DNA of 64,000 bases from a virus: positions 1 to 64,000 of IMG/VR virus record IMGVR_UViG_3300037466_003065, one strand, 5' to 3'. A program made the translations under genes and the position numbers. The first letter of the stretch is position 1. Each line of letters begins with the position of its first letter. The notes under the pieces were generated by a model that worked only from the letters and a program-made list of their open reading frames with translations, was not told the origin of the DNA and did not search any database. Positions 19,678 through 58,402 of this stretch are shown here, piece after piece.

Positions 19678-20127
19678 ATGCGTTATTTCCGCGTCACCAA
19701 GGACGTCCTGCTTGACGAAGACGAGGATCAGACCCTGAAGGTCGGGGCGATCGGTGAGTTCGACGACACTACCGAATACTGCGAGTTCAAGGCCGACGAC
19801 ATCACCAACCTGCCGGAAAACACCCGCGCGGTGGTTAGCCAGGACGCGATGCTGCTTCACAAGGGCAGCTTCGTCGAGGTCGACGAGGACGGCGACCCCT
19901 TGGCTGACCCGATCCCGTTCTTCCAAACGCACATGGTCTCGGCGCCGCTGACCCACGTCGAGAAGGGTCGCCGCGTGCTCGCCGACATGGGCCGGGCTGA
20001 GGCGGTCAAGGAGCTGGGCGGCGAGACCGACCTGACCCTCGCCGACGCCGAGGTCGACCGCGTCGCCGGCAGGGTCTTCTTCATCTGGGCCCGAAAGGTG
20101 CACTTTACGGGCAAGCTGAACCGATAG
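19678..20127 (+). CDS. Hypothetical acidic protein, 149 aa (start corrected to ATG 19678)
   Basis: GC3 bias begins at MRYFRVTKD. The track's TTG/upstream extension overlaps the HNH gene. Confidence 0.7.
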   Translation: MRYFRVTKDVLLDEDEDQTLKVGAIGEFDDTTEYCEFKADDITNLPENTRAVVSQDAMLLHKGSFVEVDEDGDPLADPIPFFQTHMVSAPLTHVEKGRRVLADMGRAEAVKELGGETDLTLADAEVDRVAGRVFFIWARKVHFTGKLNR

Positions 20128-20133
20128 TTCAGC

Positions 20134-20694
20134 ATGCAGATTCGTACGAAGCAGCAGTTCTACCGCCTGTACGAACAGGGTGCGTTCGGCAACAAGCTCC
20201 GGACGTGGATGGGTGTCAACGCACTGGTTGACAGCGTGGCTAATGGCGGGTTCCACGGCACCGTCTCGGTGCGGGCCACCACGTTCGGGGGCGACAAGCT
20301 CGCCTCGTACAACGTCCCGGCGAGCGAAGCCTACCGCTTCCTCCGCAGTCGTGACGTCCACGACATGCAGCGGGTCGCCTTTAACGAATCTGCCCCCGAC
20401 CAACTACTCGTCCTGCAGGGCGAGATCCAGAACCTCGACGGTGTCCTGCACCTCCGCTACTCCCGCGTCCGGGGCAAGAAGATGCGGGACGCCATGAAGA
20501 CTGCCCTCCACAAGCGGGGCCTGGCTGCCCTCCACCTCCTCCGGGCCGTCATGGATCCCAGCAGCTTCGCCGACCTCGAGGCCCTGTGGGAGCTCTATCC
20601 CACGGCCGTCGTCGAGTTCGGCACCTACAGTCAGCCGGTGGGCTGCCTCGGCGGCGGGAGGAACAGCGTCTTCTGGGAAGTTCGGAACTACTAA
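20134..20694 (+). CDS. Hypothetical protein, 186 aa
   Basis: Clean ORF with phage codon usage, ending VFWEVRNY. No function recognised. Confidence 0.75.
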   Translation: MQIRTKQQFYRLYEQGAFGNKLRTWMGVNALVDSVANGGFHGTVSVRATTFGGDKLASYNVPASEAYRFLRSRDVHDMQRVAFNESAPDQLLVLQGEIQNLDGVLHLRYSRVRGKKMRDAMKTALHKRGLAALHLLRAVMDPSSFADLEALWELYPTAVVEFGTYSQPVGCLGGGRNSVFWEVRNY

Positions 20695-33789: not shown

Positions 33790-36700
33790 ATGGGCCTCAC
33801 CATCGACAGTGTCGCTCCCTCGACGAGCGGCACGCTGGGCGACTACGACATCACGTTCACGGTGTCCGGGCCGGCGTCGAGTCTGTACTCGCTCGGCCTC
33901 TCGTTCACGACCAGCGTCAACTTCTCGAAGACGCCGTTGTTCCTGACCGACTCGGCCGCCAAGGTGCCGCCGGGCACCCATGTCGTGACATGGCGAACGG
34001 TCGCCCTCGCCGGCGTCGACGCGGTCATCCCGACGCCCGACCAGATCGGCCGCAACACGGCCGACGTCCTGATCTACGGGTCGCTCAACATCGACGGCGT
34101 CACGCAGGCCGACGTCACGTTCGGGCCGTACCACGTCGACAACACCGCGTCCCCGACCCCCACGGGCGGGGGCAGCAACAACACGTTCAAGTTCCCGGTC
34201 GGCGGCTGGGCCCACCCGGCCGTCCTGCCCGTCGCGTTCGACGAGAAGAACCCGCCAGTCGCCGGCGAGATCACGATCGTCATTCCCGACAAGGTCAGCG
34301 ACCTCTCGCCGGTGCGGTGCGAGCCGTTCGTCTACTGGCGGGCGTACAGCGAGGGCATCATCGAGCCGTCGTCAGGCAGCGGCGTCCGACCCGGATCCGA
34401 CGCGGGGTACGGCCAGTACCCGGCACAGGGGCCGAACAACACCAACGTCCGCGGCCTGTCCTGGCCCGCCCCGATCGCGAAGGACAACGTCGCCAACGGG
34501 AAGCGGTGGGACGACTGGGTGTTCGACCTCGACGGCGCCTACGAGCTCGCCATCCTGACTACCAACCAGCGGTGGATGTTTCGCGTGCCCCGCGACGACG
34601 GCCGCGACACCACGCTGCCGATCCCACTGACCAGCCACGAGCTGATGCGGGGGCAGTATCTGAAGGGGTACGTCGACAAGGACGGCACGACCAAGGAGTA
34701 CCCGGACGGATACGACTGGAACCTGCGGCCCGCCTGGCACCGCGGCCGCGAGGTGTGGGACACGGGCGACGCGTGGATCCAGGTCGCCACGTTCGAGCTC
34801 GTCGACTACATGGTCTGCGACACGTGCCACGGCCGCGGGTGGGTGGTGTCCGGCACGTCGGCCCCGTACGACCGCGTCGGGTGCCCCAACCCCACGTGCG
34901 ACAACGGGAGCGACAAGGGCAAGCCGTACCGCGAGCAGGTCTGGAACCCGAACATCCTGCAGTACGTGTGGTACATGCGGACGCGGCACATCCTGCGGCC
35001 CGTGTGGCACCGCCTGAGCCGGTGGATGGACGACAACCCGCTGTCGCCCCGCCGCCGGGACGGCTTCCCGATCACCGGCCAATTCGCGCTCGACCGAACG
35101 CAGTTCATCATGGGCGACAAGGTCAGCGACCTCGACGCCGTCCTCGCCGGCAACGGCGACATCTCCTACTACCTGCTCCAGACGCGGCACGGCACGACCC
35201 GGCGACTGCCGGCCGACACCGAGGTGGACTGGCCGATCGTCCGCTCCAACAACACGCCGGCGCCGGTGCGTCAGGCGGGCCAGTGGGCGGGCGTGGCGGG
35301 CGACACGTTCGTTTCGCCGACGCTGGTGCAGGAGGACTTCGACCTCGCCTGGCCGGTCGCCGGCGAGCTGGCCGGCAACGTGAAGTTTAAGGACGTCGGG
35401 CCGGTCTCGGGGGAGGTCGGGCCGTCCAAGTCGCAGTTCCTCATGGGGCAGGCAGACCCCGACTCGCACCCGCTCATGGCCAACCGCATGCGGCCGACAC
35501 AGCCGGGGAGCCTGATGGTGGGCGGGGCCATCCCCAAGCTGGCCCTGACCCGCGACCTGTTGTTCCGGTTCTTGCAGGGGGTGTGGGACGCGTACAACAC
35601 GATCCATTTCCAGTACACCGAGAGCGACACGACCTGGCTGCACATGCAGTTCGCCCAGTTCTTCCCGGACAACTCGCACACCGACTGGCAGGACGTGCGG
35701 GCCGACAACGCCGTCTTCGACAAGGTCGCCGGCGTGTGGCTGGTTCCGCCCCACCAGTTCTGGGCCTACTGGGATACGCGGGACGCCGCCCAGTTCCCCG
35801 AGGGCGGCACGTTCCGCCTCCGCATGCGGCAGTACAGCAAGCCGGCCGACGAGCCGGCGTCGTTCGGGCAGTTCGTCGTCTCGACCCCGTTCGTGCTCGC
35901 GCACGGCGTGGCCAACCCGATCAGCATTCTGAAGGTCGAGTACGAGAAGTGGAGCCACACGGTCGGCATTACGTACCGGGCCGACGATTCTCAGGCCGAC
36001 GCCTACACACTTACCCGCTTCTGGTACAGCGTCGACGACGGCGCGACGTGGCAGGAGATCTCCAAGGGCGACATCGCCGGCGAGACCGTCTACGTTTCTG
36101 CCGCCCCCGGATCGAACCTACACCAGATCACGTGGTTCGCGGGCCACTACCCGGTCACCGCGGGCAACGACTACCGGATCAAGATCGAGGCGGTGCCGAG
36201 CAAGTTCCTCGACGACATGGTGATCCCGTTCCTGAAGTGGCTGGCGCCGCGGAACCCGTACATCGACGACGCCGAGCAGGAGCTGACGACGTACCTCGGG
36301 ACGGTGCACACCCAGACGTTCAACGCCACGACGGGCCGGTGGGAGGCGTCGCCACCGTACCGCACCCCGGGCCAGATCGACACGCTGGAGGCCGAGCTGC
36401 TGCGGGTCAAGAACCACCCGGACGGCGGGCCGAACTGGTTCAACTTCTTCACCCTCTCCGGCGGCGTGTACACGCTGACCGACCCGGCCGGCTACAACGC
36501 GTGGCTGCTGACAGCGTACGCCTCCGGCGAGACGCACGGCAACGCGATGGCCCGGGTGAACACCCAGCTCGCGGACATCCTGAACAACAAGCTCCCGGCC
36601 GCACAGGACACGATCGCGGCCGGCGAGCGGGCGATCCGCAAGCGGCTGATCGACCAGGGGTACTACGCCGAGGATCACTTCGTCAACGGGCACGAGGCCG

Positions 36701-38631
36701 TGTTCGCCCCCGTCGTCGCCAACCGGTCGGGTGAGGCGTTCCCCAACCAGAACATCGAGCGGTGGTGGAACTTCCGCGTCCAGAACGCGGCCACCGGGGG
36801 GACGCGGGTGTTCAACGACTCCGGCCTGTACGACCCGCAGGAGATTACGACGCTGGAGCAGGTCTTCTACCGCGTCCAGATGGATCGCCTGCCGACGTTC
36901 GACTCCCAGACGGACGGACGGCCGCTCCGCGACTTCTTCTACGACCACACTGGCGCCCGCATCGGGCAGGCGACGTTCTTCGGCGGCCAGTCCACCCCGC
37001 CCCCGGCCACGGCCGACGCGACCCAGGCGGCCCGTGACCAGGCCAACGCCCCGGCGAACCAGCAGCAGGCTGGCGACGCGTCGACCCCGACCGCCCCGTC
37101 CGACCCCGAGCAGCCCGTCGTCGTCGGCGGGGCCCTGAAGATCCTGCCCCAACTCCTGCCGGGCGAGCAGGGCGGCGACCAGCTCGCGGCCGGCGACACC
37201 GAGTTCGACGGCGACTACCAGTGGCGAGTGGCGGCGTACAACTACATCTTCGACGCCATGCCGTTCCTGCCCCGGCCCACGGTCGACGCCCTCGCGTGGA
37301 GCGCGGACGGCCTCACGCTGACCGTGAACTATACGGCCAAGGCCCACGCCGGCGTCCAGACCTCGTCGATCGCCAACGACGGCGCCGGCAACGTCTACGG
37401 CGTGCGGGTCAGCAAGGCGTTCCTCGACACCCCGACGTGGGACGGCCCCTGGTTCGTCAACTTCGTCTCGGACAACCGGGCGGCCATCACCGAGCCGTCC
37501 CGGCAGCAGAACGGCATCCCGTGGACGCCCACGGGCAAGGATCGCCCCCAGCCCTTCTGTATGTACGACGAGCGGATCCAGCAGTACGTGATCATGACGA
37601 CGAAGAAGAGCTTCGACGGCACGTTCCGGCTGGTCACCTCGCGGGCCGCCTCGCTCCCCAAGGCGTGCGAGTACGACACGCTCTTCACGGGCGAGCAGGC
37701 GGCCGGCATCTTCGGGGCCATGATGCTGGTCGTGAACGGCACGTACCTCCTGTTCGCGACCGTCGCCCCCACGAGCGGCCCCGCCTACGTCGCGGTCAGC
37801 TCGAGCGCGGACGGGGAGACCTGGGGCCCGCTCGTCCCGTGCGCCGGTATCGTCGGAAGCCTCCCGTGGGTTTGCTACGACGGCGGCGTTTACCACATGT
37901 GGTACCAGCGGACGGCGGGCAACACCGCCGTGTACTATGCGACCTCAACGGACACCCAGACGTGGACGCCCCAGAACAGCGACGCCCCCGTTTACCAGCA
38001 GGCGGGCGACGTCGGCCGGCCCAGCGTGGTCAGGGTCAACGGGTCGTGGGCGATGTACCTGAACGACTTCGCGATCAACTCGATCATCAGCCTCGTCTCC
38101 GCGGACGGCGTCACCTGGAGCGGCCGCCGCGTCGAGCTGGGCGCCGTGTCCTACCTCGACGGCATTGGGTTCACGACCGCCCACCCGGTCAACGCCGCCG
38201 CCTACGTCGACGTGTACCAGGGCAACCCCGAGGTGTTCCTGATCCTCAACTATGTCCTGCCGGACAACAGCAGCGCCGTGTTCACGGCCCGGCTGGAGTC
38301 GCGAGACTGGCTCCCCCTGCGGTTCGGCGTCGTGCAGGCGGGGGCGAACCAACTCTTCTTCGTCCCCTTCTCGTCGGCCGGATCGACGCGGACGTTCACG
38401 GTCAACGCCGACCTCTACGGGTTCCAACAGACCGACCCGGTCAAGGTGCGGATCGACTTCCCGAAAACCGCCACGACGCCGGACAAGATGGAGTTTTATC
38501 GCCAGAGCGACTGGGTGACGATTACCAACAAGGAGGAGCTCGGGGCGTACATGAGTCCCCAGCCCTACCACTATTCCAGCAACCTTTTGAACTACCCCTA
38601 CCTGCGTCTGGGCACCAATGGCAACTCTTAA
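33790..38631 (+). CDS. Multi-domain adhesin/receptor-binding candidate (Ig/FN3-like domains, Zn finger, Asp-boxes, GH-like 5-blade propeller), 1613 aa
   Basis: SD AGGA. CDTCHGRG at 34816-34839 and CPNPTCDNG at 34882-34908. Asp-boxes SVDDGATW, SSADGETW, STDTQTW and SADGVTW. FN3-like YQWRVAAYN. Blade motifs PWVCYDGGVYHMWY and RPSVVRVNGSWAMY. Confidence 0.75.
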   Translation: MGLTIDSVAPSTSGTLGDYDITFTVSGPASSLYSLGLSFTTSVNFSKTPLFLTDSAAKVPPGTHVVTWRTVALAGVDAVIPTPDQIGRNTADVLIYGSLNIDGVTQADVTFGPYHVDNTASPTPTGGGSNNTFKFPVGGWAHPAVLPVAFDEKNPPVAGEITIVIPDKVSDLSPVRCEPFVYWRAYSEGIIEPSSGSGVRPGSDAGYGQYPAQGPNNTNVRGLSWPAPIAKDNVANGKRWDDWVFDLDGAYELAILTTNQRWMFRVPRDDGRDTTLPIPLTSHELMRGQYLKGYVDKDGTTKEYPDGYDWNLRPAWHRGREVWDTGDAWIQVATFELVDYMVCDTCHGRGWVVSGTSAPYDRVGCPNPTCDNGSDKGKPYREQVWNPNILQYVWYMRTRHILRPVWHRLSRWMDDNPLSPRRRDGFPITGQFALDRTQFIMGDKVSDLDAVLAGNGDISYYLLQTRHGTTRRLPADTEVDWPIVRSNNTPAPVRQAGQWAGVAGDTFVSPTLVQEDFDLAWPVAGELAGNVKFKDVGPVSGEVGPSKSQFLMGQADPDSHPLMANRMRPTQPGSLMVGGAIPKLALTRDLLFRFLQGVWDAYNTIHFQYTESDTTWLHMQFAQFFPDNSHTDWQDVRADNAVFDKVAGVWLVPPHQFWAYWDTRDAAQFPEGGTFRLRMRQYSKPADEPASFGQFVVSTPFVLAHGVANPISILKVEYEKWSHTVGITYRADDSQADAYTLTRFWYSVDDGATWQEISKGDIAGETVYVSAAPGSNLHQITWFAGHYPVTAGNDYRIKIEAVPSKFLDDMVIPFLKWLAPRNPYIDDAEQELTTYLGTVHTQTFNATTGRWEASPPYRTPGQIDTLEAELLRVKNHPDGGPNWFNFFTLSGGVYTLTDPAGYNAWLLTAYASGETHGNAMARVNTQLADILNNKLPAAQDTIAAGERAIRKRLIDQGYYAEDHFVNGHEAVFAPVVANRSGEAFPNQNIERWWNFRVQNAATGGTRVFNDSGLYDPQEITTLEQVFYRVQMDRLPTFDSQTDGRPLRDFFYDHTGARIGQATFFGGQSTPPPATADATQAARDQANAPANQQQAGDASTPTAPSDPEQPVVVGGALKILPQLLPGEQGGDQLAAGDTEFDGDYQWRVAAYNYIFDAMPFLPRPTVDALAWSADGLTLTVNYTAKAHAGVQTSSIANDGAGNVYGVRVSKAFLDTPTWDGPWFVNFVSDNRAAITEPSRQQNGIPWTPTGKDRPQPFCMYDERIQQYVIMTTKKSFDGTFRLVTSRAASLPKACEYDTLFTGEQAAGIFGAMMLVVNGTYLLFATVAPTSGPAYVAVSSSADGETWGPLVPCAGIVGSLPWVCYDGGVYHMWYQRTAGNTAVYYATSTDTQTWTPQNSDAPVYQQAGDVGRPSVVRVNGSWAMYLNDFAINSIISLVSADGVTWSGRRVELGAVSYLDGIGFTTAHPVNAAAYVDVYQGNPEVFLILNYVLPDNSSAVFTARLESRDWLPLRFGVVQAGANQLFFVPFSSAGSTRTFTVNADLYGFQQTDPVKVRIDFPKTATTPDKMEFYRQSDWVTITNKEELGAYMSPQPYHYSSNLLNYPYLRLGTNGNS
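34287..35133 (+). repeat. 19-bp exact direct repeat CGACAAGGTCAGCGACCTC (34287-34305 and 35115-35133)
   Basis: Both copies were read directly. They are 828 nt (276 codons) apart, in frame, and both encode DKVSDL. Confidence 0.7.
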
Positions 38632-39522: not shown

Positions 39523-39548
39523 CGGCCCGTCCAACCCAAAGCCGATAA
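39519..39548 (+). promoter_or_regulatory. Sigma-28/WhiG-type promoter candidate with perfect -10 GCCGATAA
   Basis: GCCGATAA at 39541-39548, a weak -35 (CTAGC at 39519-39523), and exactly 7 nt to ATG 39556 with no SD. Confidence 0.6.
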
Positions 39549-39555
39549 GAGCCCC

Positions 39556-40881
39556 ATGGCAGCGATTAAAGGCCAGGGGCTTTCTTATTTCCCCCTCTAC
39601 TGGTGCCACCATGACCAGTGGATGTTCTATGTCCCGAATCCCTTCGGTAACCTGAACTACCACCACCACGGCCACACGCACTTCTTCATGCTGGGCCTGG
39701 ACTTCAACGCCCCGGGCGCCGACGCCTTCTCCGGACACCAGACGTACGACTTCCGCCTCGATGACATCTGGGGCCCGCGGAGCGGCGATCCGAACCAGGC
39801 CGAGCCGTACCGCGTGATCGGCACCCCGAAGTGGAAGTTCCACATCCAGGAGGTGTGGCGGCGGGTGTACGTGCAGCCGTGGGATCTGAAGGTGGGCAAC
39901 GCCTCCAGCTTCCTACAGCAGCGTGGCGTAAAGTGGGACGCCTCGCCCGCGGACAAGATCCTCGGCCCGTTCCGCGAGACGCTGGGGTACGCCCCGGTGT
40001 ACGTGCAGAACGCCCGCACGCTCCCGCTCGAATACTTCAACCGCGAGACCAAGGGTCGCAAGGAGCGGGACAACTACGTGATGTCCAAGGCCCAGCAGAT
40101 GATCGCCGAGTGGAACGCCAGCCCGCTGGGTGCCCGCTTCCCCAAGACGTTCGACCCGCAGACCTGGAACCTCGACCACGGAAACTACGTCGACTACAAC
40201 ACGCCGCCCGGCCGCCCCTCGTTCCCCGACGCCCTGTACATCTACCCGATCATCGAGTACCAGACGGTCACCCAGCTCGACTGGGAGCGGCTGCCCGGCT
40301 ACGAGGCGGCCCACGACATCGACGCTGACAACTTCGGCGACGGCTGGACGCAGCAGATCCAGATCCCCTTCAAGAACCCGGTCACCGGCAAGTACAACAG
40401 CCCGTTCGGCCCCCAGCCCGGCGTCTGCAAGCCGGTCGGGGAATACTTCGGGGTCAAGACCAACGGCGACCCGCTCGTCCCGCTGGCCAGCCGGCCGAAG
40501 CATCGAAAGCGAAACGGGCCGCCGCCCGACCCCGACCACGTCCCGCCCTACTACCCGGAAGGGAACGACTTCCACTGCGAGCCGTTCAGCCTGCCCGCCT
40601 TCGACCCCGCCGACCCGGCATGGCAGGGTGTGGACGGCGGGCCGGTCACCGGAGACACGCGGGACAACCTCTCGGAGCAGCCCGTCACGTTCCACGATCC
40701 GCACGGCGTGAACGACGGGAAATGGGTTCAGCAGTGCCTCGGCGGCATCGTGCAGGCCCAGGCGATCGTCACGATCGAGCACAAGCTGGGCGGCCGGCGG
40801 GACGTGGTGGTTTCGGCTACGCAGTACCTGCCCACGACGGCTTTCGAAGGCGCCGACCAACTCATGCCGGCAAACCCGTAG
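39556..40881 (+). CDS. Hypothetical Pro/aromatic-rich protein with His-rich N-terminus, 441 aa
   Basis: Long ORF with phage codon usage. CHHDQW...YHHHGHTHFF near the N-terminus. Confidence 0.75.
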   Translation: MAAIKGQGLSYFPLYWCHHDQWMFYVPNPFGNLNYHHHGHTHFFMLGLDFNAPGADAFSGHQTYDFRLDDIWGPRSGDPNQAEPYRVIGTPKWKFHIQEVWRRVYVQPWDLKVGNASSFLQQRGVKWDASPADKILGPFRETLGYAPVYVQNARTLPLEYFNRETKGRKERDNYVMSKAQQMIAEWNASPLGARFPKTFDPQTWNLDHGNYVDYNTPPGRPSFPDALYIYPIIEYQTVTQLDWERLPGYEAAHDIDADNFGDGWTQQIQIPFKNPVTGKYNSPFGPQPGVCKPVGEYFGVKTNGDPLVPLASRPKHRKRNGPPPDPDHVPPYYPEGNDFHCEPFSLPAFDPADPAWQGVDGGPVTGDTRDNLSEQPVTFHDPHGVNDGKWVQQCLGGIVQAQAIVTIEHKLGGRRDVVVSATQYLPTTAFEGADQLMPANP

Positions 40882-40905: not shown

Positions 40906-41379
40906 ATGATTCGAATCGGATCCCCAGTCACGCAGACGAACCAAGACCTGACCGTCTCGTCGGTGGTTCTCGCAACGGTGGCCGCCCCGGCAACGGGCAC
41001 CATGCGGTACCTCGTCCGCGCGGTGCTCTCCAACCTTCCCTCCAACTACAGCCTCCTGATCACGGAGGGGTACGCCGCCGGCACCTACGTGAACCCGCCG
41101 CTGATCGGCGGTGGCGGGATCCGCCTGGTGCAGATCGAGGTCGTGCTGACGGCGGGGGACGCCAGCGTCCCGATTACGATCATCGACCAGGACGGCGCGG
41201 CGAACGCCGTCTCGTGGACGGTCGAGGTGTTCACGGACGACTCCTCGGCGTCCAACGTGCCCGCCGACCTGGGCGCCCGCCTCGACACGATCGACAAGCG
41301 GCTGTTCGCCACCATGATGCGTTCGTACGGCGTCTCCTCGAAGGCCGACCTGATCGCAATTGCCAACCTGCTGCCCTAA
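40906..41379 (+). CDS. Hypothetical beta-rich protein, 157 aa
   Basis: SD AAGGAAGGGAG. Its TAA overlaps the next ATG. Confidence 0.7.
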   Translation: MIRIGSPVTQTNQDLTVSSVVLATVAAPATGTMRYLVRAVLSNLPSNYSLLITEGYAAGTYVNPPLIGGGGIRLVQIEVVLTAGDASVPITIIDQDGAANAVSWTVEVFTDDSSASNVPADLGARLDTIDKRLFATMMRSYGVSSKADLIAIANLLP

Positions 41380-42029
41380 TGCCGACCCCTCCGGACAACT
41401 GGATGGACACGCTGGGGGACGGGGTCAAGGTCTTCGTCCTCGACGCCGGCCTGATCGCCACCCCCTTCGTGTCGCCGGCCGAGGTCAAGACGTTCACGGC
41501 GACCGACACCACCGACCTCCGCGGGCACGGCACCCGGATGGCCGAGATCATCGCGTCGCGAGACCCCGGCGACTTGGGCATCGCCCCGGAGTGCGACCTG
41601 TACATCGCCAAGGTCGTTGAGGTCGGGCAGGGTACGTCGCCGATCGTCCGGGCCCTGCGGTGGGCCAAGAACGCCGGCGCCCAGGTCGTCTCCATGTCGT
41701 TCGCCTACCGAACGCCCGACCCCGACGTCGACCAAGCCCTCGCCGAGCTGGATGCCGCCGGCTGCATCTGCCTTGCCGCCTACAACGCCGCCCTGCCGTA
41801 TCCGGCCGCCTGCGAACACGTCGTCTCGTGCGGCACGCTGGAGAGCGATGCGGACGCCGACGCGCTCACGGTCGGCGAGGTGACGAAAAGAACCCCGGCT
41901 GGGCCGCTCAGGCCCTACCGGGGTTCCTCCATCTCCACCGCCGTCCTTGCCGGGATCGCGGCCTGCGCCAAGTCGTTTCAGCCGTCGCTCACGCGGTCGC
42001 AGTTCCTCGCCGCCCTAGCCGCAGGCTGA
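41379..42029 (+). CDS. Minimal subtilisin-like (S8) serine peptidase, 216 aa (true start 41379, buried in track ORF 40620)
   Basis: TAATG coupling. Catalytic triad motifs VFVLDAG (D22), GHGTRMAEII (H50) and RGSSISTAVLAG (S184), plus GIAPECDLYIAKV, VVSMSF and AAYN...YPAA. Confidence 0.88.
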   Translation: MPTPPDNWMDTLGDGVKVFVLDAGLIATPFVSPAEVKTFTATDTTDLRGHGTRMAEIIASRDPGDLGIAPECDLYIAKVVEVGQGTSPIVRALRWAKNAGAQVVSMSFAYRTPDPDVDQALAELDAAGCICLAAYNAALPYPAACEHVVSCGTLESDADADALTVGEVTKRTPAGPLRPYRGSSISTAVLAGIAACAKSFQPSLTRSQFLAALAAG

Positions 42030-42864
42030 CGCTCTGCTCGAGCTCGGCCCGCATGTCGGGGTCGTCGGTGAACCGCACCTTGAGCTGGTTGAGGATGCTG
42101 CTGTGCATCTGGCTGACGCGGGACTCGGACAGGTCGAGGGCGGCGCCGATCTCCTTCATGGTCAGGTTCTCGCAGTAGTACAGCGAGACGATCATCCGCT
42201 CGGCGCGGTTACTGCCCCGCAGGATCCGATCCCAGAAGTCTCGCTGCATGACCCGCTCGAGGGAGCGGGGCGCCTGCTTGTCCTCCAGGACGTCGATCTC
42301 GCGGACGTCCTTGTTGGAGTCGGTCTCGAACCACTTGCGGGAGAGGGACACCTTGCCGGTCACGAGGGCGTCGCGGGCCATCCGCTCGGCCTCCTTCACC
42401 GGCACCTGCATGTGCCTGGACAGCTCCTCGATCGTCGGCACCTGGCCGCTCTCGGCCTCGAGCGCCTTGACCGCCGCGTCGACCTTGGCCGCCCGGGCGC
42501 GGACGAGGCGGGGAACCCAGTCCATGTTCCGCAGCTCGTCGAGGATCGAGCCGCGGATCCGCGGGGCACAGTAGGTCTCGAACTTCACCCCGCGGGTCGG
42601 GTCGTACGCGTCGATCGCGTCCATCAGGCCGAACAGGCCGGCCGAGACCAGGTCGTCCAGCTCCACCTCGCTGGGCAGCTTGACGTGGATCCGCTCGGCG
42701 TTGTAGCGAACGATCGGCAGGTAGTTCTCCATCAGGCGATTGCGAAGGTGGCCGGTGGGCACCCGCTTGTAGGTGGCCCACTCCTCCTTCATGCACTTCA
42801 CCACCCTTGAGGCCCCCAGGCCGATCGCCCGGGCCGGGGGTCGCTTGATTGTGTTCGAAACCAT
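41989..42864 (-). CDS. fliA: FliA/WhiG-family (sigma-28) RNA polymerase sigma factor, 291 aa
   Basis: SD AAGGAG. Region 2 (VELDDLVSAGLFGLMDAIDAYDPTRGVKFETYCAPRIRGSILDELRNMDWVPR), region 3, and region 4 HTH (YYCENLTMKEIGAALDLSESRVSQMHS). Confidence 0.95.
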   Translation of the reverse strand: MVSNTIKRPPARAIGLGASRVVKCMKEEWATYKRVPTGHLRNRLMENYLPIVRYNAERIHVKLPSEVELDDLVSAGLFGLMDAIDAYDPTRGVKFETYCAPRIRGSILDELRNMDWVPRLVRARAAKVDAAVKALEAESGQVPTIEELSRHMQVPVKEAERMARDALVTGKVSLSRKWFETDSNKDVREIDVLEDKQAPRSLERVMQRDFWDRILRGSNRAERMIVSLYYCENLTMKEIGAALDLSESRVSQMHSSILNQLKVRFTDDPDMRAELEQSVSLRLGRRGTATA

Positions 42865-42889: not shown

Positions 42890-43405
42890 TTACAGGTTGT
42901 TGTCCCAGAGGCCGGTTAGATTCATTTCTTTCATCAGCTCGATCCACCGTGCTGTGGGCGTTTGTTGTCGCCCCATGTTGGCCCATGAGCAGCACAGCAC
43001 GATGTTGTCAAGTACGTACCCCTTTGAGCAGTCGAGCCGGTCTACACTCACCGACTTCGGGTTGGCCCACCGCCCGTGGACGAGCGACATATCCATCCCG
43101 CTCCAGTAGCACTTGCCTGCCTGAGACTCCCAAAGGTGCCGCAGGTCGCCCTGCTTGATGGTGAAGGGCCACCCTCTTTTGCGGCACGTCTTCTTGATGT
43201 TCTTGCAGGTAGTCGCGAAGGGGTGCTTCTCGTGGTACTCCTTCGAGTAATCCCGGTAGTGCTTAGGCTTGTTTTGGCGGCAACGCTTGCCCGCCTCCGA
43301 AGTGCAGGCACGACACCATGAGGCCCGACCCAGCTTTGCTTTCTTATTGAGTGCAAAGAGGATCAGCTCCTTGTCGTGCCCACACTTCGGACACCTCTTC
43401 TTCAC
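42890..43405 (-). CDS. HNH-type (His-Me finger) endonuclease with N-terminal Zn ribbon, 171 aa
   Basis: CPKCG...WCRAC and CYWSG...SVDRLDCSKGYVLDNIVLCCSWANMG. GTGA overlap with the thyX stop. Lower GC. Confidence 0.85.
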   Translation of the reverse strand: MKKRCPKCGHDKELILFALNKKAKLGRASWCRACTSEAGKRCRQNKPKHYRDYSKEYHEKHPFATTCKNIKKTCRKRGWPFTIKQGDLRHLWESQAGKCYWSGMDMSLVHGRWANPKSVSVDRLDCSKGYVLDNIVLCCSWANMGRQQTPTARWIELMKEMNLTGLWDNNL

Positions 43406-44256
43406 AGGCCATTCTCCTGTTCGTATCGCTCGAGAAGGGCCTTGAGGTCACAGCGTCGGCGTTCGCCAGGAAAATGCTTACGGTAGGATTTCCAACCGAT
43501 GAAGTTCCCCGAGCGGCCCGGTTCGGCGACCGCGGGGTGCTCGAACGGCGACCAGTGGCCATCGGTAGCCAGGTCGTCGTGCATCGCGTAGTCCTTCTCC
43601 ACACTGATCTCCCCCTCGTGGTTGAGGTAGGAGACGCGGGCGCACCGGGCGGCGGACACCTTGCGGATCTGCTCGACGGTCAGGCCGGCGGGCATGCGAT
43701 CCATGTAGGGCAGGTGCCAGTCGCCCCAGTAGAGCTGCTTGGGGTCGGACGCGACGTACGCCTTGAGGGCGAGGTAGGCCAGCCACTGGAACTCGGGCTG
43801 GGCCGCCCTGTGCACGCGGAGGGCGAAGAAGTTCTCCCACTCCGTCGCCGACACGAGGACGGTCATCCACGCGAACGGCTCGAGGACGCGGTTGGCGATC
43901 TGCTTGTGACAGCCGATGTTTTCCAGCGTCGTCGCGTACTCGGCAGCCACCCTTGACGCGGTGAACCAGTCCGCCTGGGCCATCGCCGTCCGATGGTCGT
44001 CGAGCACGCCGTGATCTTGCATGCCCTTGCCGTTCGAGCCCCAACGGATCGGGCCGGCCGGGTTTTCCCGCACAGCCTTGATCATCTTCGCGATGGGGAT
44101 CGCGCGGCTGCTGGCGGCGTTACGGGAGAAGTCCCGGTGGGTCATCAGTTCGCTGTGAATGAAGCGGGGGTACTTCAGCTCCATCGTCGTCAGGCGGTTA
44201 CCGTCCGGGTTGACGGAGTCCGCGATGACCCTCGCGCTGAACAGTTCCTTCTTCAC
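43402..44256 (-). CDS. thyX: FAD-dependent thymidylate synthase (ThyX-like), 284 aa (start corrected to GTG 44256)
   Basis: SD GGAGGT with GTGA overlap. YPRFIHSELMTHRDFSRNAASSRAIP, HKQIANRVLEPF, SAARCARVSYL and HWSPFEH motifs. Confidence 0.85.
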   Translation of the reverse strand: MKKELFSARVIADSVNPDGNRLTTMELKYPRFIHSELMTHRDFSRNAASSRAIPIAKMIKAVRENPAGPIRWGSNGKGMQDHGVLDDHRTAMAQADWFTASRVAAEYATTLENIGCHKQIANRVLEPFAWMTVLVSATEWENFFALRVHRAAQPEFQWLAYLALKAYVASDPKQLYWGDWHLPYMDRMPAGLTVEQIRKVSAARCARVSYLNHEGEISVEKDYAMHDDLATDGHWSPFEHPAVAEPGRSGNFIGWKSYRKHFPGERRRCDLKALLERYEQENGL

Positions 44257-45446
44257 GCCGTCACCTCCGTCATCTTCCGCACCGACCACTCGCGGATGTC
44301 GTTGGTCACCACCGCCCACATCCCGTGGTCGCGGCGGATCCCCAGGAACGCCTTGAACAGCGACTCCATGGCCTTGGTGAGGTTGGCGAGGGAGGCGATG
44401 CGGGCGTCGATCACGGCCCGCTCGGTCTCCGCGTTGTCGACGGCCGGGAGCCGCACGCCGCTGTACTTGAACAGCTCGGGGTCGAACGTGAACTCGAACT
44501 GCTCGCCGTCGACGTGGACGGCCAGGTACGCCTTGCGGGGCACCTTGCCGCGGGTCAGGGCCTGGCGGGCCTCCGGCGACTTGGACGGGCCGGCGCCGCG
44601 GGCCGCGGTGCGACCGCCCTGGCCGTACGAGCACTCCAGCTCCAGCACCTTGTCGAACATGAAGGTGAGCTCGGTCTTGCGGCCGCCCGGCAGGTTGATC
44701 TTGACCTCGCCGTCGTGCGCGTCGGCGACGTACCAGAGCCAGACGAGGAACTCGTTCCCGAGGAACGCCTTGGGGTACGCGTTGCGGGCGACCCACGGGT
44801 ACTCGGGGCTGGTCTTCTCGTCGCCGGACGGGTTGTCGGCGAACGCGGTCGGGCGCAGGTCTTCGTACGTCGTGGTCGGCAGGTACGCCTGGGCGATCGA
44901 GCTGGCGTTGACGGGCTGCAGCTCGGCCTTGGTCGTCCGCTCGAAGATCTCGGCCAGCTTCTCGAACGTGGCGCCGGAGGCCGGGGAGTAGAGCGAGCCG
45001 TTGGCCAGATCCCAGAGCACCTCGGTGATCTTGCTCCGGCGGTGCTTGCCCGTCCGAAGGTCCTCGTCGGCCTTCCGCTCGACGGTCTCCCTGACCTCCT
45101 TCTTCTGCAGCTTCGAGAGGAAGCCGCTCGGATTCTGCTTGGCGAGGATCTCGGACTCGATCTCCTTCCACGCCTTCTTCAGCTCCGTGGGCACCTTGTT
45201 GCGGTCGACCTGGAGGCCGAACAGCATCGCCTCGTTGAAGACGTTGCTGCCGAACGTGAACTCCTTGTCGAGGACGTGGCGGCCGCCGCCCCACCCGTAC
45301 TCGATCTCCTCGACCCCGCCGCCCAGCTCGGCCGGCTGCAGGACGTGCTCGTGGAACTGGGCGACCAGTTCCTCGGTCGGCGTGGCGGGCACCGTGCCCA
45401 GCGTCGTGTACCGACGAAACGCAATTGACCCTGTCTTGAAACCCAT
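44253..45446 (-). CDS. rdgC: RdgC-like recombination-associated protein, 397 aa (start corrected to ATG 45446)
   Basis: SD AAGGAG. MGFKTGSIAFRRY...YGW...LQVDRNKVP...LSKLQKKEVRE...VLWD...FLGNEFLVWLWY is the RdgC-like layout. Confidence 0.65.
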   Translation of the reverse strand: MGFKTGSIAFRRYTTLGTVPATPTEELVAQFHEHVLQPAELGGGVEEIEYGWGGGRHVLDKEFTFGSNVFNEAMLFGLQVDRNKVPTELKKAWKEIESEILAKQNPSGFLSKLQKKEVRETVERKADEDLRTGKHRRSKITEVLWDLANGSLYSPASGATFEKLAEIFERTTKAELQPVNASSIAQAYLPTTTYEDLRPTAFADNPSGDEKTSPEYPWVARNAYPKAFLGNEFLVWLWYVADAHDGEVKINLPGGRKTELTFMFDKVLELECSYGQGGRTAARGAGPSKSPEARQALTRGKVPRKAYLAVHVDGEQFEFTFDPELFKYSGVRLPAVDNAETERAVIDARIASLANLTKAMESLFKAFLGIRRDHGMWAVVTNDIREWSVRKMTEVTA

Positions 45447-45469: not shown

Positions 45470-45961
45470 TTAGTGGTTGATGATGACGTCGAGCGCGAGC
45501 TCGGCGGGAATGACGTTGTCGAAGCCCTCGTCGTCGATGACGGGCTGCCACAGCTTCTCGTGGGCCCGGGCGACGCCCAGCCAGTAGTCGAAGTCCTTCC
45601 CGCGGGCGTCGCTGGTCGTGCGGCGGCCGGCGTGTATCTCCGGCTTCTCGCGGGGGAACTCGACGGCGATCGCGGGGACGTCGATCGACCGGGCCAGCTC
45701 GACGTAGCGGCGGCGGGTCGACCGGCAGTGGAGCGGGCGGTCGACGACGACGTCGAAGCCGGTGGCCAGGCCGGGCAGGAGGACGGCGTTCTCCACGCCC
45801 TTGTAGATGTGCTTGGCCCGCTCCTCGTACAGGCCGTACTGGCCGGCGTGCAGCGAGAGGACGAAGTCGTCGTCGTTGATGATCAGGGCCCCGTTCTGGG
45901 CGAGCTGCCGGGCGAGTGTGGACTTCCCGGAGGCGATGGGGCCGACGAGTAAGATGAGCAT
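45470..45961 (-). CDS. P-loop kinase (AAA_33 / polynucleotide-kinase-like), 163 aa
   Basis: Walker A GPIASGKS, then IINDD, VVVD and R-x3-R lid motifs. Confidence 0.8.
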   Translation of the reverse strand: MLILLVGPIASGKSTLARQLAQNGALIINDDDFVLSLHAGQYGLYEERAKHIYKGVENAVLLPGLATGFDVVVDRPLHCRSTRRRYVELARSIDVPAIAVEFPREKPEIHAGRRTTSDARGKDFDYWLGVARAHEKLWQPVIDDEGFDNVIPAELALDVIINH

Positions 45962-45978: not shown

Positions 45979-46293
45979 TTAGGTCGGGAGGCGTTGGGTG
46001 CCGGACAGCATGGCCTTGGCCCGCATCTGGCGGGCGATGGAGACCGCGTTCACGACGCCGGTGTTGTGCTGGTTCAGTGTGTCGGCCTCGACGGCGCGGA
46101 TGTACCCCTCGAGCGCGTGCGTGGCGTACTGATCCTTCATGTTGAGGACGAAGAACTGTTCGTCGGGGGCGTGCTTCGCGGCCTTCTCGGCCGCGATCTT
46201 GCCGATCAGCTCGGCGAGCTGGCTCCGCTCCTGCGGGGTCAGGTACCGGCTCAAGTCCGACGCCTTGATCACGGTGTACTTGCTACTGGACAT
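45979..46293 (-). CDS. Small hypothetical protein (KYxVIK...FVLNxKDxYA pattern), 104 aa
   Basis: SD AGGAG. Overlaps the recD2 stop. Confidence 0.7.
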   Translation of the reverse strand: MSSSKYTVIKASDLSRYLTPQERSQLAELIGKIAAEKAAKHAPDEQFFVLNMKDQYATHALEGYIRAVEADTLNQHNTGVVNAVSIARQMRAKAMLSGTQRLPT

Positions 46294-48589
46294 TGGTGAT
46301 GGCTCCTGTCTGGGTGAGTGCCTTGTGGGCCTCGCGGAGCTTCTCGGCGAGGCGGGTGTTCCGTTGGGCGACCTTGTTGTTGCGGATCGCCATCTCGAGC
46401 GCGTTGGGGTGTGCGATCAGGTGGGCGTGCCTCTTGCCGCGGGTCAGGCCGGTGTAGACCAGGTTCCGCTGCAGGAGCGTGAAGTGGCTCGTGTGCAGTA
46501 CCATGATCAGGAGCGGCGCCTCGGAGCCCTGCACCTTGTGGATCGTGCTGGCGTACGCGAGGATCAGGTTCGACCACTCGTCACCGTTCTCGAACTTGAC
46601 GATGCGGCCGTCGAAGTCGACGTGGATGCCGGACAAGTCCTTGCCGTTGATCCCGAACTCGATGTCGGTGATCACGCCCATGTCGCCGTTCGACAGGTTC
46701 AGCTTGAGGCTGTTGGCCGTGTGCATGACCTTGTCGCCGACGCCCCACCGGATGCCGGGGCCCCGCATGACCGACTTGGGCGGGTTCGGGTTCAGGGCCT
46801 CCTGCAACTTCGCGTTCAGCATGTCGACGCCGCACGCGTTCTTCCGCTGGGGGCTGAGCACCATCACGTCGCGGATCGGGTCGAACCCCAGCCGCTGGGC
46901 CATGAACGTCGCCGCCCAGACGGCCATCTGCGTCTGCTGCTCGGCGTCGGTGATCAGGGACGCGAACATGTCCGTGCCCTGCGGGATGCCGGTCTGCCGG
47001 CTCAGGATGTTCAGCTTGGGCATCTCGCCGCGGTTGATCGCGTGGGCGGCGACGCAGATGTCGCTCCCCTGTGCCTGGCGGAAGATGTGGGTCAGGACGG
47101 TCGTGCCGACCACGCCGGACGCGATCAGGTCGCGGAGCACGGCGCCGGGGCCGACGCTCGGGAGCTGGTCGCGGTCGCCGATGACGACCAGGATCGTCTC
47201 GTCGGTGCAGAACCGGAGGAACCAGTCCATCAGCTTGATGTCGACCATCGACGACTCGTCGAGGAACACCACGCTGTGCCCGAACGTGTTGGCTCCCGGG
47301 TCGGCGTCGTACTCGACGTCGTTCGCGGCCTCCCGCTGATCCTTGCCCAACTGGAACAGCTTGCGGTGCATCGTCGACGCTTCGAGGCCGATCACCTGCC
47401 CCATCCGCTTGGCCGCCCGCCCGGTCGGGGCGAGGAGGGTGACGCCGAGGCCCGACTTCAGCCAGCCGTTCACGACGGCCTTGGTGATCGTCGTCTTGCC
47501 GGTGCCGGGGCCGCCGGTCAGGACGGACACTCGGTTAGCCAGACAGCGGAGTACGGCCTCCATCTGGGTGGGGTGGAGCTCGACGCCGGCCGCCTTCTTG
47601 GCCGCGCCGATGATCTCGGCGATCCGGTCTCGGTCGCGGGGTGGCGTCTTCATCGAGGCCATCCGGGCGAGCCGGCGGGCGACGCGGTTCTCGCAGGCGA
47701 GGATGTCGGGCAGGTACACCCGATCCTCCTCGACGACCAGGATCTGCTTGTCGATCGCCTGCTGGACGACCTGGGTGACCATCTGGTGGGTCACCTGCGG
47801 CGTGATCGTCTGCAGGAACTCCGTGGTCAGGTTGATCAGCTCGATGCGGGGGAGGAAGCAGTGCCCCTCGTTCTGCATCTTCTCTTCGAGGATGTGCTCG
47901 CACGCCGCGCGGAGCCGGAGGTCGGACATCTCGACGACGCCCAGGTGGCGGGCGATCTCGTCGGCCTTCTTGAAGCCGATGCCGGCGATGTCGCGGGCGA
48001 GCTTGTACGGGTCGGCCTTGATCGTGTCGATCGCGGCGTCCTCGTACTTCTTGTAGATCTTGTTCAGGAAGACGGTCGAGATCCCGGCCGTCGTGCAGAA
48101 CATCAGGAGCTTGCGGTATTCCTGCTTGGCCTGCCACTCCTTCAGGATGGACTTGTACCGGTCGGCGCCGATGCCCTTGACCTCGAGCAGTCGCTCGGGG
48201 TTGTTGTCGATGACCTTGATCGTGTCCTCGCCGAACATCTCGACGATCCGGCGGGCGTTCTTCGGGCCGATGTTCTTGACGTTCTCCTCCAAGAACTTGG
48301 CGATCTCCACCGTCCCCCGCGGTTCCAGCCGCTGGATCGTGTCGATCTGGATCTGGAGGCCGAAGGACGAGTTCTTGACCTTGCCGGCGACCTTCACCCG
48401 CTCTCCCACCTTGGACTCGGCACAGGGGCCGACGATCGTGCAGATGCCCTTGCGGTTCACGAACGGCCAGTCGCCGTACTGCTTGAGATCGACCTTCAGG
48501 CGGCGGACGCCCCAGCCCGACTCGGGCTTGTCGCACGTGACCGTCTCGATCACGCCCTCGATCTCTACCATGTTTCCGGTGTTATTCAT
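46283..48589 (-). CDS. recD2: RecD2-like ATP-dependent SF1B helicase, 768 aa
   Basis: N-terminal OB/HhH region (IGPKNARRIVEMFG, VKGIG, NPY-like DPYKL...GIGFKKAD). Motifs GGPGTGKTT, LDESSM, GDRDQLPSVGPG, IFRQ, YASTIHKVQGSE and YTGLTRGK. Confidence 0.95.
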   Translation of the reverse strand: MNNTGNMVEIEGVIETVTCDKPESGWGVRRLKVDLKQYGDWPFVNRKGICTIVGPCAESKVGERVKVAGKVKNSSFGLQIQIDTIQRLEPRGTVEIAKFLEENVKNIGPKNARRIVEMFGEDTIKVIDNNPERLLEVKGIGADRYKSILKEWQAKQEYRKLLMFCTTAGISTVFLNKIYKKYEDAAIDTIKADPYKLARDIAGIGFKKADEIARHLGVVEMSDLRLRAACEHILEEKMQNEGHCFLPRIELINLTTEFLQTITPQVTHQMVTQVVQQAIDKQILVVEEDRVYLPDILACENRVARRLARMASMKTPPRDRDRIAEIIGAAKKAAGVELHPTQMEAVLRCLANRVSVLTGGPGTGKTTITKAVVNGWLKSGLGVTLLAPTGRAAKRMGQVIGLEASTMHRKLFQLGKDQREAANDVEYDADPGANTFGHSVVFLDESSMVDIKLMDWFLRFCTDETILVVIGDRDQLPSVGPGAVLRDLIASGVVGTTVLTHIFRQAQGSDICVAAHAINRGEMPKLNILSRQTGIPQGTDMFASLITDAEQQTQMAVWAATFMAQRLGFDPIRDVMVLSPQRKNACGVDMLNAKLQEALNPNPPKSVMRGPGIRWGVGDKVMHTANSLKLNLSNGDMGVITDIEFGINGKDLSGIHVDFDGRIVKFENGDEWSNLILAYASTIHKVQGSEAPLLIMVLHTSHFTLLQRNLVYTGLTRGKRHAHLIAHPNALEMAIRNNKVAQRNTRLAEKLREAHKALTQTGAITNVQ

Positions 48590-48625: not shown

Positions 48626-48654
48626 AGTGTAATCCCTTGGGGATTATTTCGCAA
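48626..48654 (-). promoter_or_regulatory. Sigma-70 promoter TTGCGA-N17-TACACT for the recD2...fliA operon
   Basis: On the minus strand: TTGCGA at 48654-48649, a 17-nt spacer, TACACT at 48631-48626, about 36 nt before the ATG. Confidence 0.75.
48629..48647. promoter_or_regulatory. Palindromic operator copy GTAATC-N7-GATTAT
   Basis: Fills the spacer of the recD2 promoter and overlaps its -10. An extra half-site GATTAC lies at 48595-48600. Confidence 0.7.
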
Positions 48655-48683: not shown

Positions 48684-48714
48684 CAAAGAAAACGGCCCGG
48701 CACACGCCGGGCCG
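48684..48714 (-). terminator. Rho-independent terminator
   Basis: 9-bp stem CGGCCCGGC/GCCGGGCCG (48693-48714) with a 4-nt loop, followed on the minus strand by TTTTCTTTG. Confidence 0.85.
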
Positions 48715-48741
48715 CCCACCGCGACCGCGATCGCGGCCCGC

Positions 48742-50133
48742 TTACGCGGTCACGTTGTGTACTAGCATCCCGGCGAACCCGCCCTCTTCCCACAGGTACG
48801 CCTCGGCCGAGCGGGGGCCGTCCGTGTAGCCGTTCTGGGCGTGCCAGGCGTCGGCGGGACAGAGCGACGGGAGGACTCGAACGTGCACGCCGTGGTCGAC
48901 GTGGAGCGTGGTGTCGCCGCGCATCTTCTTGCTCTTGAAGATCGTGTGCTTCCGCGTGTGCAGGTGCCCCAGGTGCAGCTCGCGGTGGGTCGCGCGGGCG
49001 AACGACAGGGGTGCCGCGTTCGCGAAGAACATGGGCAGGTCGGCCGGCGACATCTTGTCCCCGTGCAGGAAGCCGACCAGCGTTTGGCCGTACTCGACCC
49101 ACTTGAAGAGGTTGGGGCGGTTGTCCACCCGAACGTCCTTGCAGCGATGGAAGCGGGCCTCGACGACGTCGCCCAGGTAGAAGGTGCGTTCGTAGTCGTG
49201 GTTGCCGGGGACGATCAGGGCCTCGACGGGCGCCACTCCGCGGCACATCTCGATCGCCCGGATGACGGCCTGCGTGGCCACCCGGAACGACTTCTGCCAC
49301 CGGCCGTCCACGTCCTGCGGCGTGCCCGCCGCGGTCGCGTTCTCCTTGCCGTCCGTGTGGAGCAGGTCGTTGCCCACGGGGAGCAGGATCTTGGAGACGT
49401 GGTAGGGCTGGAGCTTGGTGAGCATGTCCTCGACGGCCTTGAGGTAGGCGCTCTCGGTGATCTTCAGATCCCAGTTGTCGCCCCCGGTCTCCTCGGCCCA
49501 GCACAGCTTTCCGAAGTGGGGGTCGGGGATCGACAGTTCGGCCATGATCCCGCCCAGCGAGGGTCGGCGGCGAACGGGTTTGTAGGTTGGGCTGTTCCGC
49601 CGCATGTCGGCGACCAGATCCTCCCGGAGCTGGTTGTTCAGGGCGATCTCCGGCGACTTCCGCTTCAGGTTGGCCTTGACCTGGAAGAGCTGGACGGCGG
49701 CGAGCTGCCGCTCGTACCGGGTGTCACTGACCTTCTCGGACGACACGCGGGCGAAGCCGTCCCACTTGTTGACCTTGTACTCCGCGACCTCCCAGACGTT
49801 CAGGTCGACCTTCATGTAGGCGAGCAGGTCTTCGAGCGTGCGGATCGTATCGGTGATCGCCGAGACGCACCGGACATCCCCCTTCACGTGATCCTCGTAC
49901 TGGTTCTTGCCGTCCTTGGGTGTCGCGTCGGCCCTGACCCCCTCGCCCCCGACCTTCCCCTGGCCCCTGCTGCGACGCTCCTTCTTGAGCTCCAGGTGCC
50001 GGTTGCGGCACGCGTCCTTGGTGATCCCGAGCTGCCTGGCGATGTGTGAATAGGTGAACCCGTTCGCCCGTCCTTCGACGATTGCCCGATCCATCTCGGG
50101 CGTGTACTTCGACGGTTTCGATCCTGATGCCAT
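48742..50133 (-). CDS. Calcineurin-like metallophosphoesterase with N-terminal HTH, 463 aa
   Basis: DPHFG, GNDLLHTD, PGNHD, HGD and GHLH motifs. N-terminal YTPEMD...YSHIARQLGITKDACRNR HTH. Confidence 0.88.
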   Translation of the reverse strand: MASGSKPSKYTPEMDRAIVEGRANGFTYSHIARQLGITKDACRNRHLELKKERRSRGQGKVGGEGVRADATPKDGKNQYEDHVKGDVRCVSAITDTIRTLEDLLAYMKVDLNVWEVAEYKVNKWDGFARVSSEKVSDTRYERQLAAVQLFQVKANLKRKSPEIALNNQLREDLVADMRRNSPTYKPVRRRPSLGGIMAELSIPDPHFGKLCWAEETGGDNWDLKITESAYLKAVEDMLTKLQPYHVSKILLPVGNDLLHTDGKENATAAGTPQDVDGRWQKSFRVATQAVIRAIEMCRGVAPVEALIVPGNHDYERTFYLGDVVEARFHRCKDVRVDNRPNLFKWVEYGQTLVGFLHGDKMSPADLPMFFANAAPLSFARATHRELHLGHLHTRKHTIFKSKKMRGDTTLHVDHGVHVRVLPSLCPADAWHAQNGYTDGPRSAEAYLWEEGGFAGMLVHNVTA

Positions 50134-50210
50134 AGTGCAAACCCTTGGTGAGACTACTTCCCCTTGTGTTTGGATTTAGATGTGATCGGCAATATTTGCC
50201 CTGTAATCCC

Positions 50211-54123: not shown

Positions 54124-54153
54124 TGGCCGACTCGCGAGAGTCTCTATCGGCCA
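54124..54153. other. Inverted repeat TGGCCGA/TCGGCCA in the nrdJ leader
   Basis: 7-bp arms at 54124-54130 and 54147-54153. The minus strand also contains GCCGATAG (54151-54144) without a clear -35. Confidence 0.35.
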
Positions 54154-57956: not shown

Positions 57957-57985
57957 AGTGTACCCGGAGGGATTACTCGGTGCAA
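57957..57985 (-). promoter_or_regulatory. Sigma-70 promoter TTGCAC-N17-TACACT (leftward block)
   Basis: On the minus strand: TTGCAC at 57985-57980, 17 nt, TACACT at 57962-57957. Same -10 as the recD2 promoter. An operator half-site lies in the spacer (57971-57976). Confidence 0.75.
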
Positions 57986-58370: not shown

Positions 58371-58389
58371 GTAATCCCCCGCGGATTAC
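58371..58389. promoter_or_regulatory. Perfect operator GTAATC-N7-GATTAC (copy B)
   Basis: Read directly. Also preceded by GTTG. 46 bp from copy A and 13 nt before ATG 58403. Confidence 0.75.
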
Positions 58390-58402
58390 CTCGCGAGAAC
58401 CG

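Follow-up and report, generated by a model that had tools for sequence, protein, structure and literature searches.

A gene for a sigma factor of the FliA/WhiG (sigma-28) type was studied at positions 41989-42864 (minus strand) of a 64,000-nt stretch of viral DNA, hereafter the window, which comprises the first 64 kb of the 184,787-bp IMG/VR record IMGVR_UViG_3300037466_003065. This gene was derived from a planctomycete host, and its product probably now serves the phage as a late sigma factor of its own. In the mechanism that we propose, host RNA polymerase with the housekeeping sigma factor would read a promoter of the form TTGCGA-N17-TACACT, so that recD2, nucleotide-metabolism genes and the sigma gene would be made as one transcript ending at a hairpin. 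The newly made phage sigma would then bind the host core polymerase and steer it to promoters with a GCCGAT(A/C) -10 element, situated mainly before genes of the virion module. We infer the timing of expression, the binding to core polymerase, the use of these promoters and an escape from the host anti-sigma factor FlgM from features of the sequence, which are presented below together with the alternatives.

The gene is intact and encodes 291 amino acids, with a Shine-Dalgarno sequence AAGGAG (42874-42869, minus strand) 4 nt upstream of the ATG at 42864; the IMG gene call begins at the internal M25 and gives a protein of 267 amino acids. Pfam matches to Sigma70_r2 (residues 44-116), r3 (126-198) and r4 (221-262) revealed a group-3 architecture without region 1.1, and the FliA_WhiG model TIGR02479 scored 228.3 bits (cut-off 189.6) over residues 44-264. 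A preliminary description of the window had reported a complete sigma-28 factor with regions 2 to 4, and these matches bear it out. Two equivalog models remained below their cut-offs (NF004935 WhiG, 230 of 343 bits; NF005413 FliA, 191 of 201 bits). By these profile scores the protein is a member of the FliA/WhiG family and not an equivalog of characterised FliA or WhiG. Its closest solved structures by sequence were actinobacterial WhiG (6PFV), E. coli FliA (6PMI) and P. aeruginosa FliA (9WSF), with E-values from 5e-49 to 2e-35, and Aquifex sigma-28 (1RP3) was also among the best solved relatives. The AlphaFold model was poor (mean predicted local distance difference test score 63.6, below 50 in sigma2), and the comparison relied instead on sequence matches to solved structures of sigma-28 proteins. 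The identical protein is present on four other contigs.

Among 5.8 billion proteins, the only matches above 67% identity were the phage's own copies, and none fell between 67% and 100%. The other top matches were proteins named FliA at 60-67% identity; one carried an organism name, Tepidisphaeraceae, and a Tepidisphaeraceae member was also found in one cluster of these matches. In 185,579 species genomes, a scan picked up Planctomycetota of both classes (57-65% identity); its search patterns had been drawn from this family of proteins, and the list is biased accordingly. In maximum-likelihood trees, the phage sigma was placed inside the Planctomycetota FliA clade (Shimodaira-Hasegawa-like approximate likelihood ratio test, 96) and, within it, in a Phycisphaerae-rich subclade (support 91/100), on an end branch of 0.88 compared to a median of 0.15, that is, about six times as long. 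The nearest cellular homologue examined, from a metagenome-assembled genome of the Tepidisphaerales, sits in the gene order flhA-flhF-flhG-fliA. By its place in these trees the phage sigma is a captured planctomycete FliA. The capture of a host sigma factor had been put forward in the preliminary description, with phylogeny as the check, and the nesting of the protein within Planctomycetota FliA agrees with it.

The same description had considered that the contig might be chromosomal and the gene the host's own fliA. Such an artefact, or a chimeric contig, could draw on the 57-67% identity to cellular FliA, and on nothing beyond it. The contig is a complete phage genome and not a chromosome: CheckV rates it complete (100%), TerL and portal genes are found at 169-178 kb of the genome together with a weak major-head match, and the virion strand runs through the record end into window positions 1-42029 with giant virion-type open reading frames (ORFs), the virion module making up about one third of the genome. 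The record ends repeat each other over ~190 bp (1-190 versus 184598-184787) with one mismatch. Despite this repeat the IMG/VR listing describes the record as linear and free of end repeats. The genome is probably complete, with either circular permutation or terminal redundancy. The codon-position GC of the sigma gene (0.65/0.42/0.94) agrees with that of the phage's own genes, no flagellin was found in the phage genome, and the flanks of the sigma gene lack flagellar genes, unlike the cellular flhA-flhF-flhG-fliA arrangement. The long branch of the phage sigma likewise argues against a host gene, and we regard an artefact as hardly credible.

The sigma gene closes a leftward block (57739-41989) that contains genes for deoxycytidine monophosphate (dCMP) deaminase, class II ribonucleotide reductase, an exonuclease and RecD2, followed by the genes down to sigma. 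Within this block, the unit proposed to carry sigma begins with the gene of a RecD2-type helicase (46283-48589, minus strand; AAA_30, HHH_RecD2, SH3_13 and UvrD_C_2) and passes through thyX, encoding a flavin-dependent thymidylate synthase (43402-44256, minus strand; PF02511); the domain matches confirmed both of these genes of the run as named in the preliminary description. The putative sigma-70-like promoter TTGCGA-N17-TACACT lies at 48626-48654 on the minus strand (TTGCGA 48654-48649, TACACT 48631-48626). Its sequence and position are as described earlier, whereas the match to the sigma-70 consensus extends to only 8 of 12 positions, and for this reason the promoter was absent from the calls of the scan tool. 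It is preceded by a hairpin with a U-tract and by an A/T-rich stretch, and a near-twin promoter is found at ~57985. The hairpin before the recD2 promoter is terminator-like (48685-48717, minus strand; free energy -27.7, z -2.4) and separates the unit from the upstream gene of a 463-residue DNA-repair exonuclease (48742-50133, minus strand).

At the other end, an intrinsic-terminator-like hairpin with a UUCUUUU tract (41886-41933, minus strand; -38.8 kcal/mol, z -6.05) follows the sigma stop codon, and none of 200 shuffles was as good. Because the hairpin and U-tract stand directly after the stop, sigma is the last gene of a unit of ~6.7 kb, and its place at the end of the leftward run is as previously described. 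The convergent gene on the plus strand (41379-42029), the last of the virion-strand block, encodes a subtilase-like protein (Peptidase_S8, PF00082, 64.8 bits) and overlaps the 3' end of the sigma gene by 41 nt, so that the terminator hairpin is embedded in the subtilase-like coding sequence; read on the plus strand, this hairpin lacks a U-tract. The location of sigma in an early- or middle-type DNA-metabolism unit behind a host-type promoter fits, and supports, its expression before the genes that it would serve.

The spacer of the promoter carries a TAATCC..GGATTA palindrome. Between the genes of this genome no hexamer is more over-represented than TAATCC, which is also present in other host-type promoters; TAATCC-N4-5-GGATTA was observed in host-type promoter spacers at 48632-48648 and 57960-57980 (minus strand), at 58372-58392 (plus strand) and at genome positions 73952 and 159343. 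The palindrome looks like an operator of a putative phage regulator.

The -10 core of sigma-28 promoters, GCCGATA, occurs 17 times in the genome, 15 times on the plus strand. Non-coding positions account for 10 of the 17 occurrences compared to 1.7 expected (P about 1e-6), and seven lie at most 60 nt upstream of a start on the same strand compared to 0.6 expected. Words of seven letters with the composition of GCCGATA number 4,480, and those commoner upstream of starts are nearly all ribosome-binding-site words. A set of 15 sites was compiled, with GCCGAT(A/C) in 14 and ACCGATA at 20120. Ten of them are located within the virion module, where the box is the sole feature of several short gaps. 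In five or six cases the ATG of a real gene follows 6-8 nt after the box, and the mRNA would therefore begin at the start codon and be leaderless. On the plus strand, GCCGATA at 18671-18677, with TAAG 17 nt upstream, is followed after 8 nt by the ATG of an HNH-like gene (18686-19636), and GCCGATC at 19663-19669, with GAAA(G) 17 nt upstream, likewise stands 8 nt before its gene (19678-20127). The ACCGATA box (20120-20126, plus strand) precedes the ATG of the gene at 20134-20694 by 7 nt, and a further GCCGATA (39541-39547, plus strand) that of the gene at 39556-40881 by 8 nt. For the gene at 39556, homology confirmed the start codon, since the counterpart in a related phage aligns from residue 3. 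This enrichment of GCCGATA before virion genes fits an early-to-late switch by the phage sigma.

Several observations weigh against a role as late sigma factor. Five of the 15 sites are outside the virion module, two of them in the strand block of sigma itself, where a GCCGATC box (50184-50190, minus strand) stands between a terminator and the exonuclease gene, and a GCCGATA box (54145-54151, minus strand) precedes the gene for class II ribonucleotide reductase. Many gaps of the virion module have no box, and the gaps in front of TerL and of the major head gene are among them. The textbook sigma-28 promoter has a spacing of 15, as in TAAAGTTT-n11-GCCGATAA (PMC2859248). A strict search of the genome for TAAA-N14-16-NCCGATA, representing the canonical -35 element (TAAA, 15 nt before GCCGATAA), gave zero hits, and the canonical sigma-28 promoter form therefore appears not to be used. 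A -35-like [GT]AA[AG] was present at only four of the 15 sites, always at N17 and never at N15 or N16 (P 2.5e-5; about 5e-4 allowing for 20 offsets). For the host side, upstream regions of 15 flagellin and four flgM genes from five genomes were inspected. One planctomycete genome alone among the five had clear flagellin promoters (TAAG/TAAC-N15-ACCGATAGG), and a common planctomycete sigma-28 consensus was not obtained.

A distant phage relative of 175 kb (G006, L139-L147; TerL 44% identical, 44% GC) has syntenic virion and replication modules, separated by ~3.4 kb, and lacks sigma together with the entire 42-58 kb block, that is, ribonucleotide reductase, dCMP deaminase, exonuclease, RecD2, ThyX and sigma. 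Sigma is therefore an accessory acquisition in this phage lineage. As this was the sole related phage found, a comparison of orthologous promoters yielded nothing.

Finally, the phage encodes three sigma factors in all. Two further genes, similar to extracytoplasmic function (ECF) sigma factors, were found on the plus strand at genome positions 160375-161517 (L007:16375-17517) and 162052-162747 (L007:18052-18747). Both exceed the cut-off of the sigma70-ECF superfamily model (42.9 bits), with 44.9 bits and weak Pfam matches to regions 2 and 4 for the former, and 43.8 bits and Pfam region 4 alone for the latter. They head the virion-strand block behind a host-type promoter and might account for late transcription in part or in full. 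A FliA-type sigma therefore need not be "the" switch. In a sigma cascade of this kind, the two ECF-like factors would run the main early-to-late switch, and the FliA-type sigma would serve only a subset of genes, for example those of a last tier, or a few monocistronic ones. The many virion gaps without a GCCGAT box would be explained as well. A common ECF-type motif was not seen in the box-less gaps, however, and, ribosome-binding-site words apart, no word upstream of genes is stronger than GCCGATA. We consider such a cascade a serious rival, albeit a rather unlikely one. Of the early-to-late switch proposed in the preliminary description, the enrichment of the box before virion genes and the host-type promoter speak in favor, while the two ECF-like sigma factors and the lack of a canonical -35 element speak against it.

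The residues of the phage sigma that would contact DNA or FlgM were mapped through a HMMER alignment to P. aeruginosa sigma-28 (9WSF), for which a list of contact residues is available that includes D66, Y76, R80, R82, L86, R90 and R97 (PMC12784957). All contacts to the -10 and extended -10 elements are kept (D88, Y98, R102, R104, L108, R112, and R119). The match to the planctomycete FliA consensus is high in region 2 (83%), region 3.2 (93%) and region 4.1-4.2 (82%), and low in the linker between regions 3.2 and 4.1 (residues 197-219, 17%) and at the C-terminus (25%). Cellular planctomycete FliA proteins are highly conserved mutually, with a mean column identity of 78%. Furthermore, positions of the FlgM-binding groove in sigma4 differ from the host consensus (L210F, L224M, I227S, E233N, and M234L). 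FlgM is encoded in four candidate host genomes and not in the phage, and the groove substitutions, as read from the alignment, are suggestive of an escape from this host anti-sigma factor. The phage sigma also has a C-terminal tail of 10 residues, RLGRRGTATA. A role as an arginine-rich docking tail of this genome was considered for it and rejected, since no match was found.

The kept and changed residues bear on two other explanations. In the first, the phage FliA would mainly activate the sigma-28 regulon of the host (flagellin, chemotaxis) and thereby affect motility or the cell cycle, and would be nonessential for phage transcription. Residues that read the -10 element are identical to those of host FliA, flagellin promoters of the TAAG/TAAC-N15-ACCGATAGG type occur in at least one planctomycete, and the accessory status of the sigma gene in the phage lineage would suit such a function. 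The concentration of the cognate box before phage genes points the other way, as does the strong divergence from the highly conserved host FliA, which would be unexpected if the host regulon alone mattered. We regard host manipulation as the principal function as improbable; it could be compatible with a role as late sigma. The rewiring of host motility or of the swarmer/sessile cycle raised in the preliminary description may occur, and follows only from the conserved DNA-reading residues.

In the second explanation, the protein would be a decoy or competitor that titrates host FlgM or occupies core polymerase, leading to host shutdown without specific promoters. The candidate hosts do encode FlgM, the phage does not, and the substitutions affect positions that contact FlgM in P. 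aeruginosa. A pure decoy would have no need of intact DNA-reading residues and would leave the enriched box unexplained, which makes this explanation very unlikely.

Returning to the phage sigma as a late factor, a more specific form of this reading can be offered tentatively. The phage sigma may represent an insulated form of sigma-28 that has kept the -10 reading of the host; the altered FlgM groove would let it escape the flagellar checkpoint, and the altered 3.2/4.1 linker would make it prefer N17 or -35-less promoters. Such a sigma would run a private late regulon, made up largely of leaderless mRNAs and poorly read by host FliA, and the provirus L010 described below would share this solution. 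We consider this extension possible, though doubtful in its entirety.

Compared to known bacterial proteins, the phage sigma has the same sigma2-sigma3-sigma4 build as FliA of E. coli and P. aeruginosa (6PMI, 9WSM/9WSF) and WhiG of actinobacteria (6PFV). As in bacterial sigma-28, the -10 and extended -10 contacts are conserved, and the same GCCGATA word is found near the candidate targets. It differs in being encoded by a phage, in having recD2, thyX, endonuclease and ribonucleotide reductase genes as neighbors instead of flagellar or developmental genes, and in the -35-like element, which, where present, is 17 nt from the box and not 15 as in the consensus (PMC2859248). Its nearest relatives, the FliA proteins of Planctomycetota (Phycisphaerae/Tepidisphaerales; 57-67% identity), are set apart from the phage copy by its long branch, diverged linker, changed FlgM groove and C-terminal tail.

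Among phage proteins, gp28 and gp33/34 of Bacillus phage SPO1, T4 gp55 and phiEco32 gp36 are well established as factors that redirect the host core polymerase from early to later promoters (see also PMC13401047 and PMC12276001). The mode proposed here would be the same, with a phage sigma redirecting host core polymerase, whereas the factor itself, a full group-3 sigma, is a recent derivative of the host flagellar one and not a member of a long-standing phage-only family. The sporulation-type (SigF/SigG-like) sigma factors of Bacillus phages are likewise host-like group-3 proteins on large phages, but fall in the SigB/F/G branch, and the work on them concerned host dormancy and not a function as late-gene sigma factors (PMC9429907). 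Some GenBank records of Bacillus phages label such SigF/G-like genes as "sigma 28 subunit"; their identity to the query, a phage sigma of the FliA/WhiG type, is below 32%. According to a review of jumbo phages (PMC7824862), host-like phage sigma factors may have been acquired secondarily.

The literature searched yielded no paper on a sigma-28 factor of a phage, and GenBank phage matches to the sigma were below 40% identity. A scan of viral contigs with the single protein as query gave no match, and an alignment-based scan gave 15 loci. At least two other IMG/VR contigs (L010 and L011) exceeded the TIGR02479 cut-off, and five more came close to it. A FliA/WhiG-type sigma is not unique to this phage, and other IMG/VR phages carry such factors. 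L010 (IMGVR_UViG_3300018890_000017) is a provirus of 73% GC with TerL, portal, scaffold and major head protein. Its sigma (locus 5815-7119; TIGR02479, 219.6 bits) is a planctomycete-type FliA with 58% identity to that of the phage, and the gene is located directly after rusA and upstream of the packaging genes, a second case that speaks in favor of a late sigma of this kind. In lambdoid phages, the slot after rusA is the place of the late regulator Q. The branch of the L010 sigma is equally long and its linker is likewise diverged (22% match). A single clade of the two sigma factors was neither rejected (approximately unbiased test, p 0.57) nor demonstrated, and the two genomes share nothing else. 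A single suggestive GAAG-N17-GCCGATC site stands before a terminase-like gene of L010 at ~12.3 kb, which is not significant alone. L011 is a complete phage of 147.7 kb with an unrelated genome that is almost without GCCGATA; its sigma scored 226.4 bits with TIGR02479 and is only 34% identical.

Between recD2 and sigma, the unit contains, in addition to thyX, four minus-strand genes. A phage protein of 104 amino acids without assigned function (45979-46293; phrog_7810) and an AAA_33 P-loop kinase-like gene (45470-45961) are followed by a gene for a 397-residue protein (44253-45446) without a Pfam or PHROG match. The latter is probably the gene that had been described as rdgC-like, a name that was not upheld, since no RdgC match was found in the whole genome even at E<=1. 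The fourth, an endonuclease VII/HNH-type gene of atypical codon usage (42890-43405; phrog_1035, 96 bits), is separated from sigma by a 25-nt gap. The two HNH/endonuclease VII-type genes, at 18686-19636 (plus strand) and 42890-43405 (minus strand), have a third-position GC of 0.71 and 0.77, respectively, compared to ~0.9 in their neighbors. Both are probably mobile homing-endonuclease insertions, one of them between thyX and sigma.

The giant ORFs of the virion module encode 3,991 (1128-13103), 2,773 (21739-30060) and 1,613 amino acids (33790-38631), all on the plus strand, and each has a weak homologue (23-35% identity) in the related 175-kb phage. The PHROG scan covered the 1,613-residue ORF of the three and gave no match for it.

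Phage-made sigma factors are a classic means of timing gene expression, and those studied belong to a few phage-specific or sporulation-type families. A phage sigma relay is a known strategy, here with an unusual sigma family, and the case is moderately surprising, as an expected variation on a known theme. To our knowledge, almost nothing is known of phage biology in Planctomycetota. The present case adds a planctomycete phage with a flagellar-type sigma from the host phylum and a readable set of candidate promoters, and the sigma gives a direct host prediction for the phage. It offers a simple pair of sigma factor and promoter, and a natural experiment on the uncoupling of a captured sigma from its host regulators. 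Should the phage copy remain able to read the sigma-28 promoters of the host, motility genes of the host would be disturbed by infection as well.

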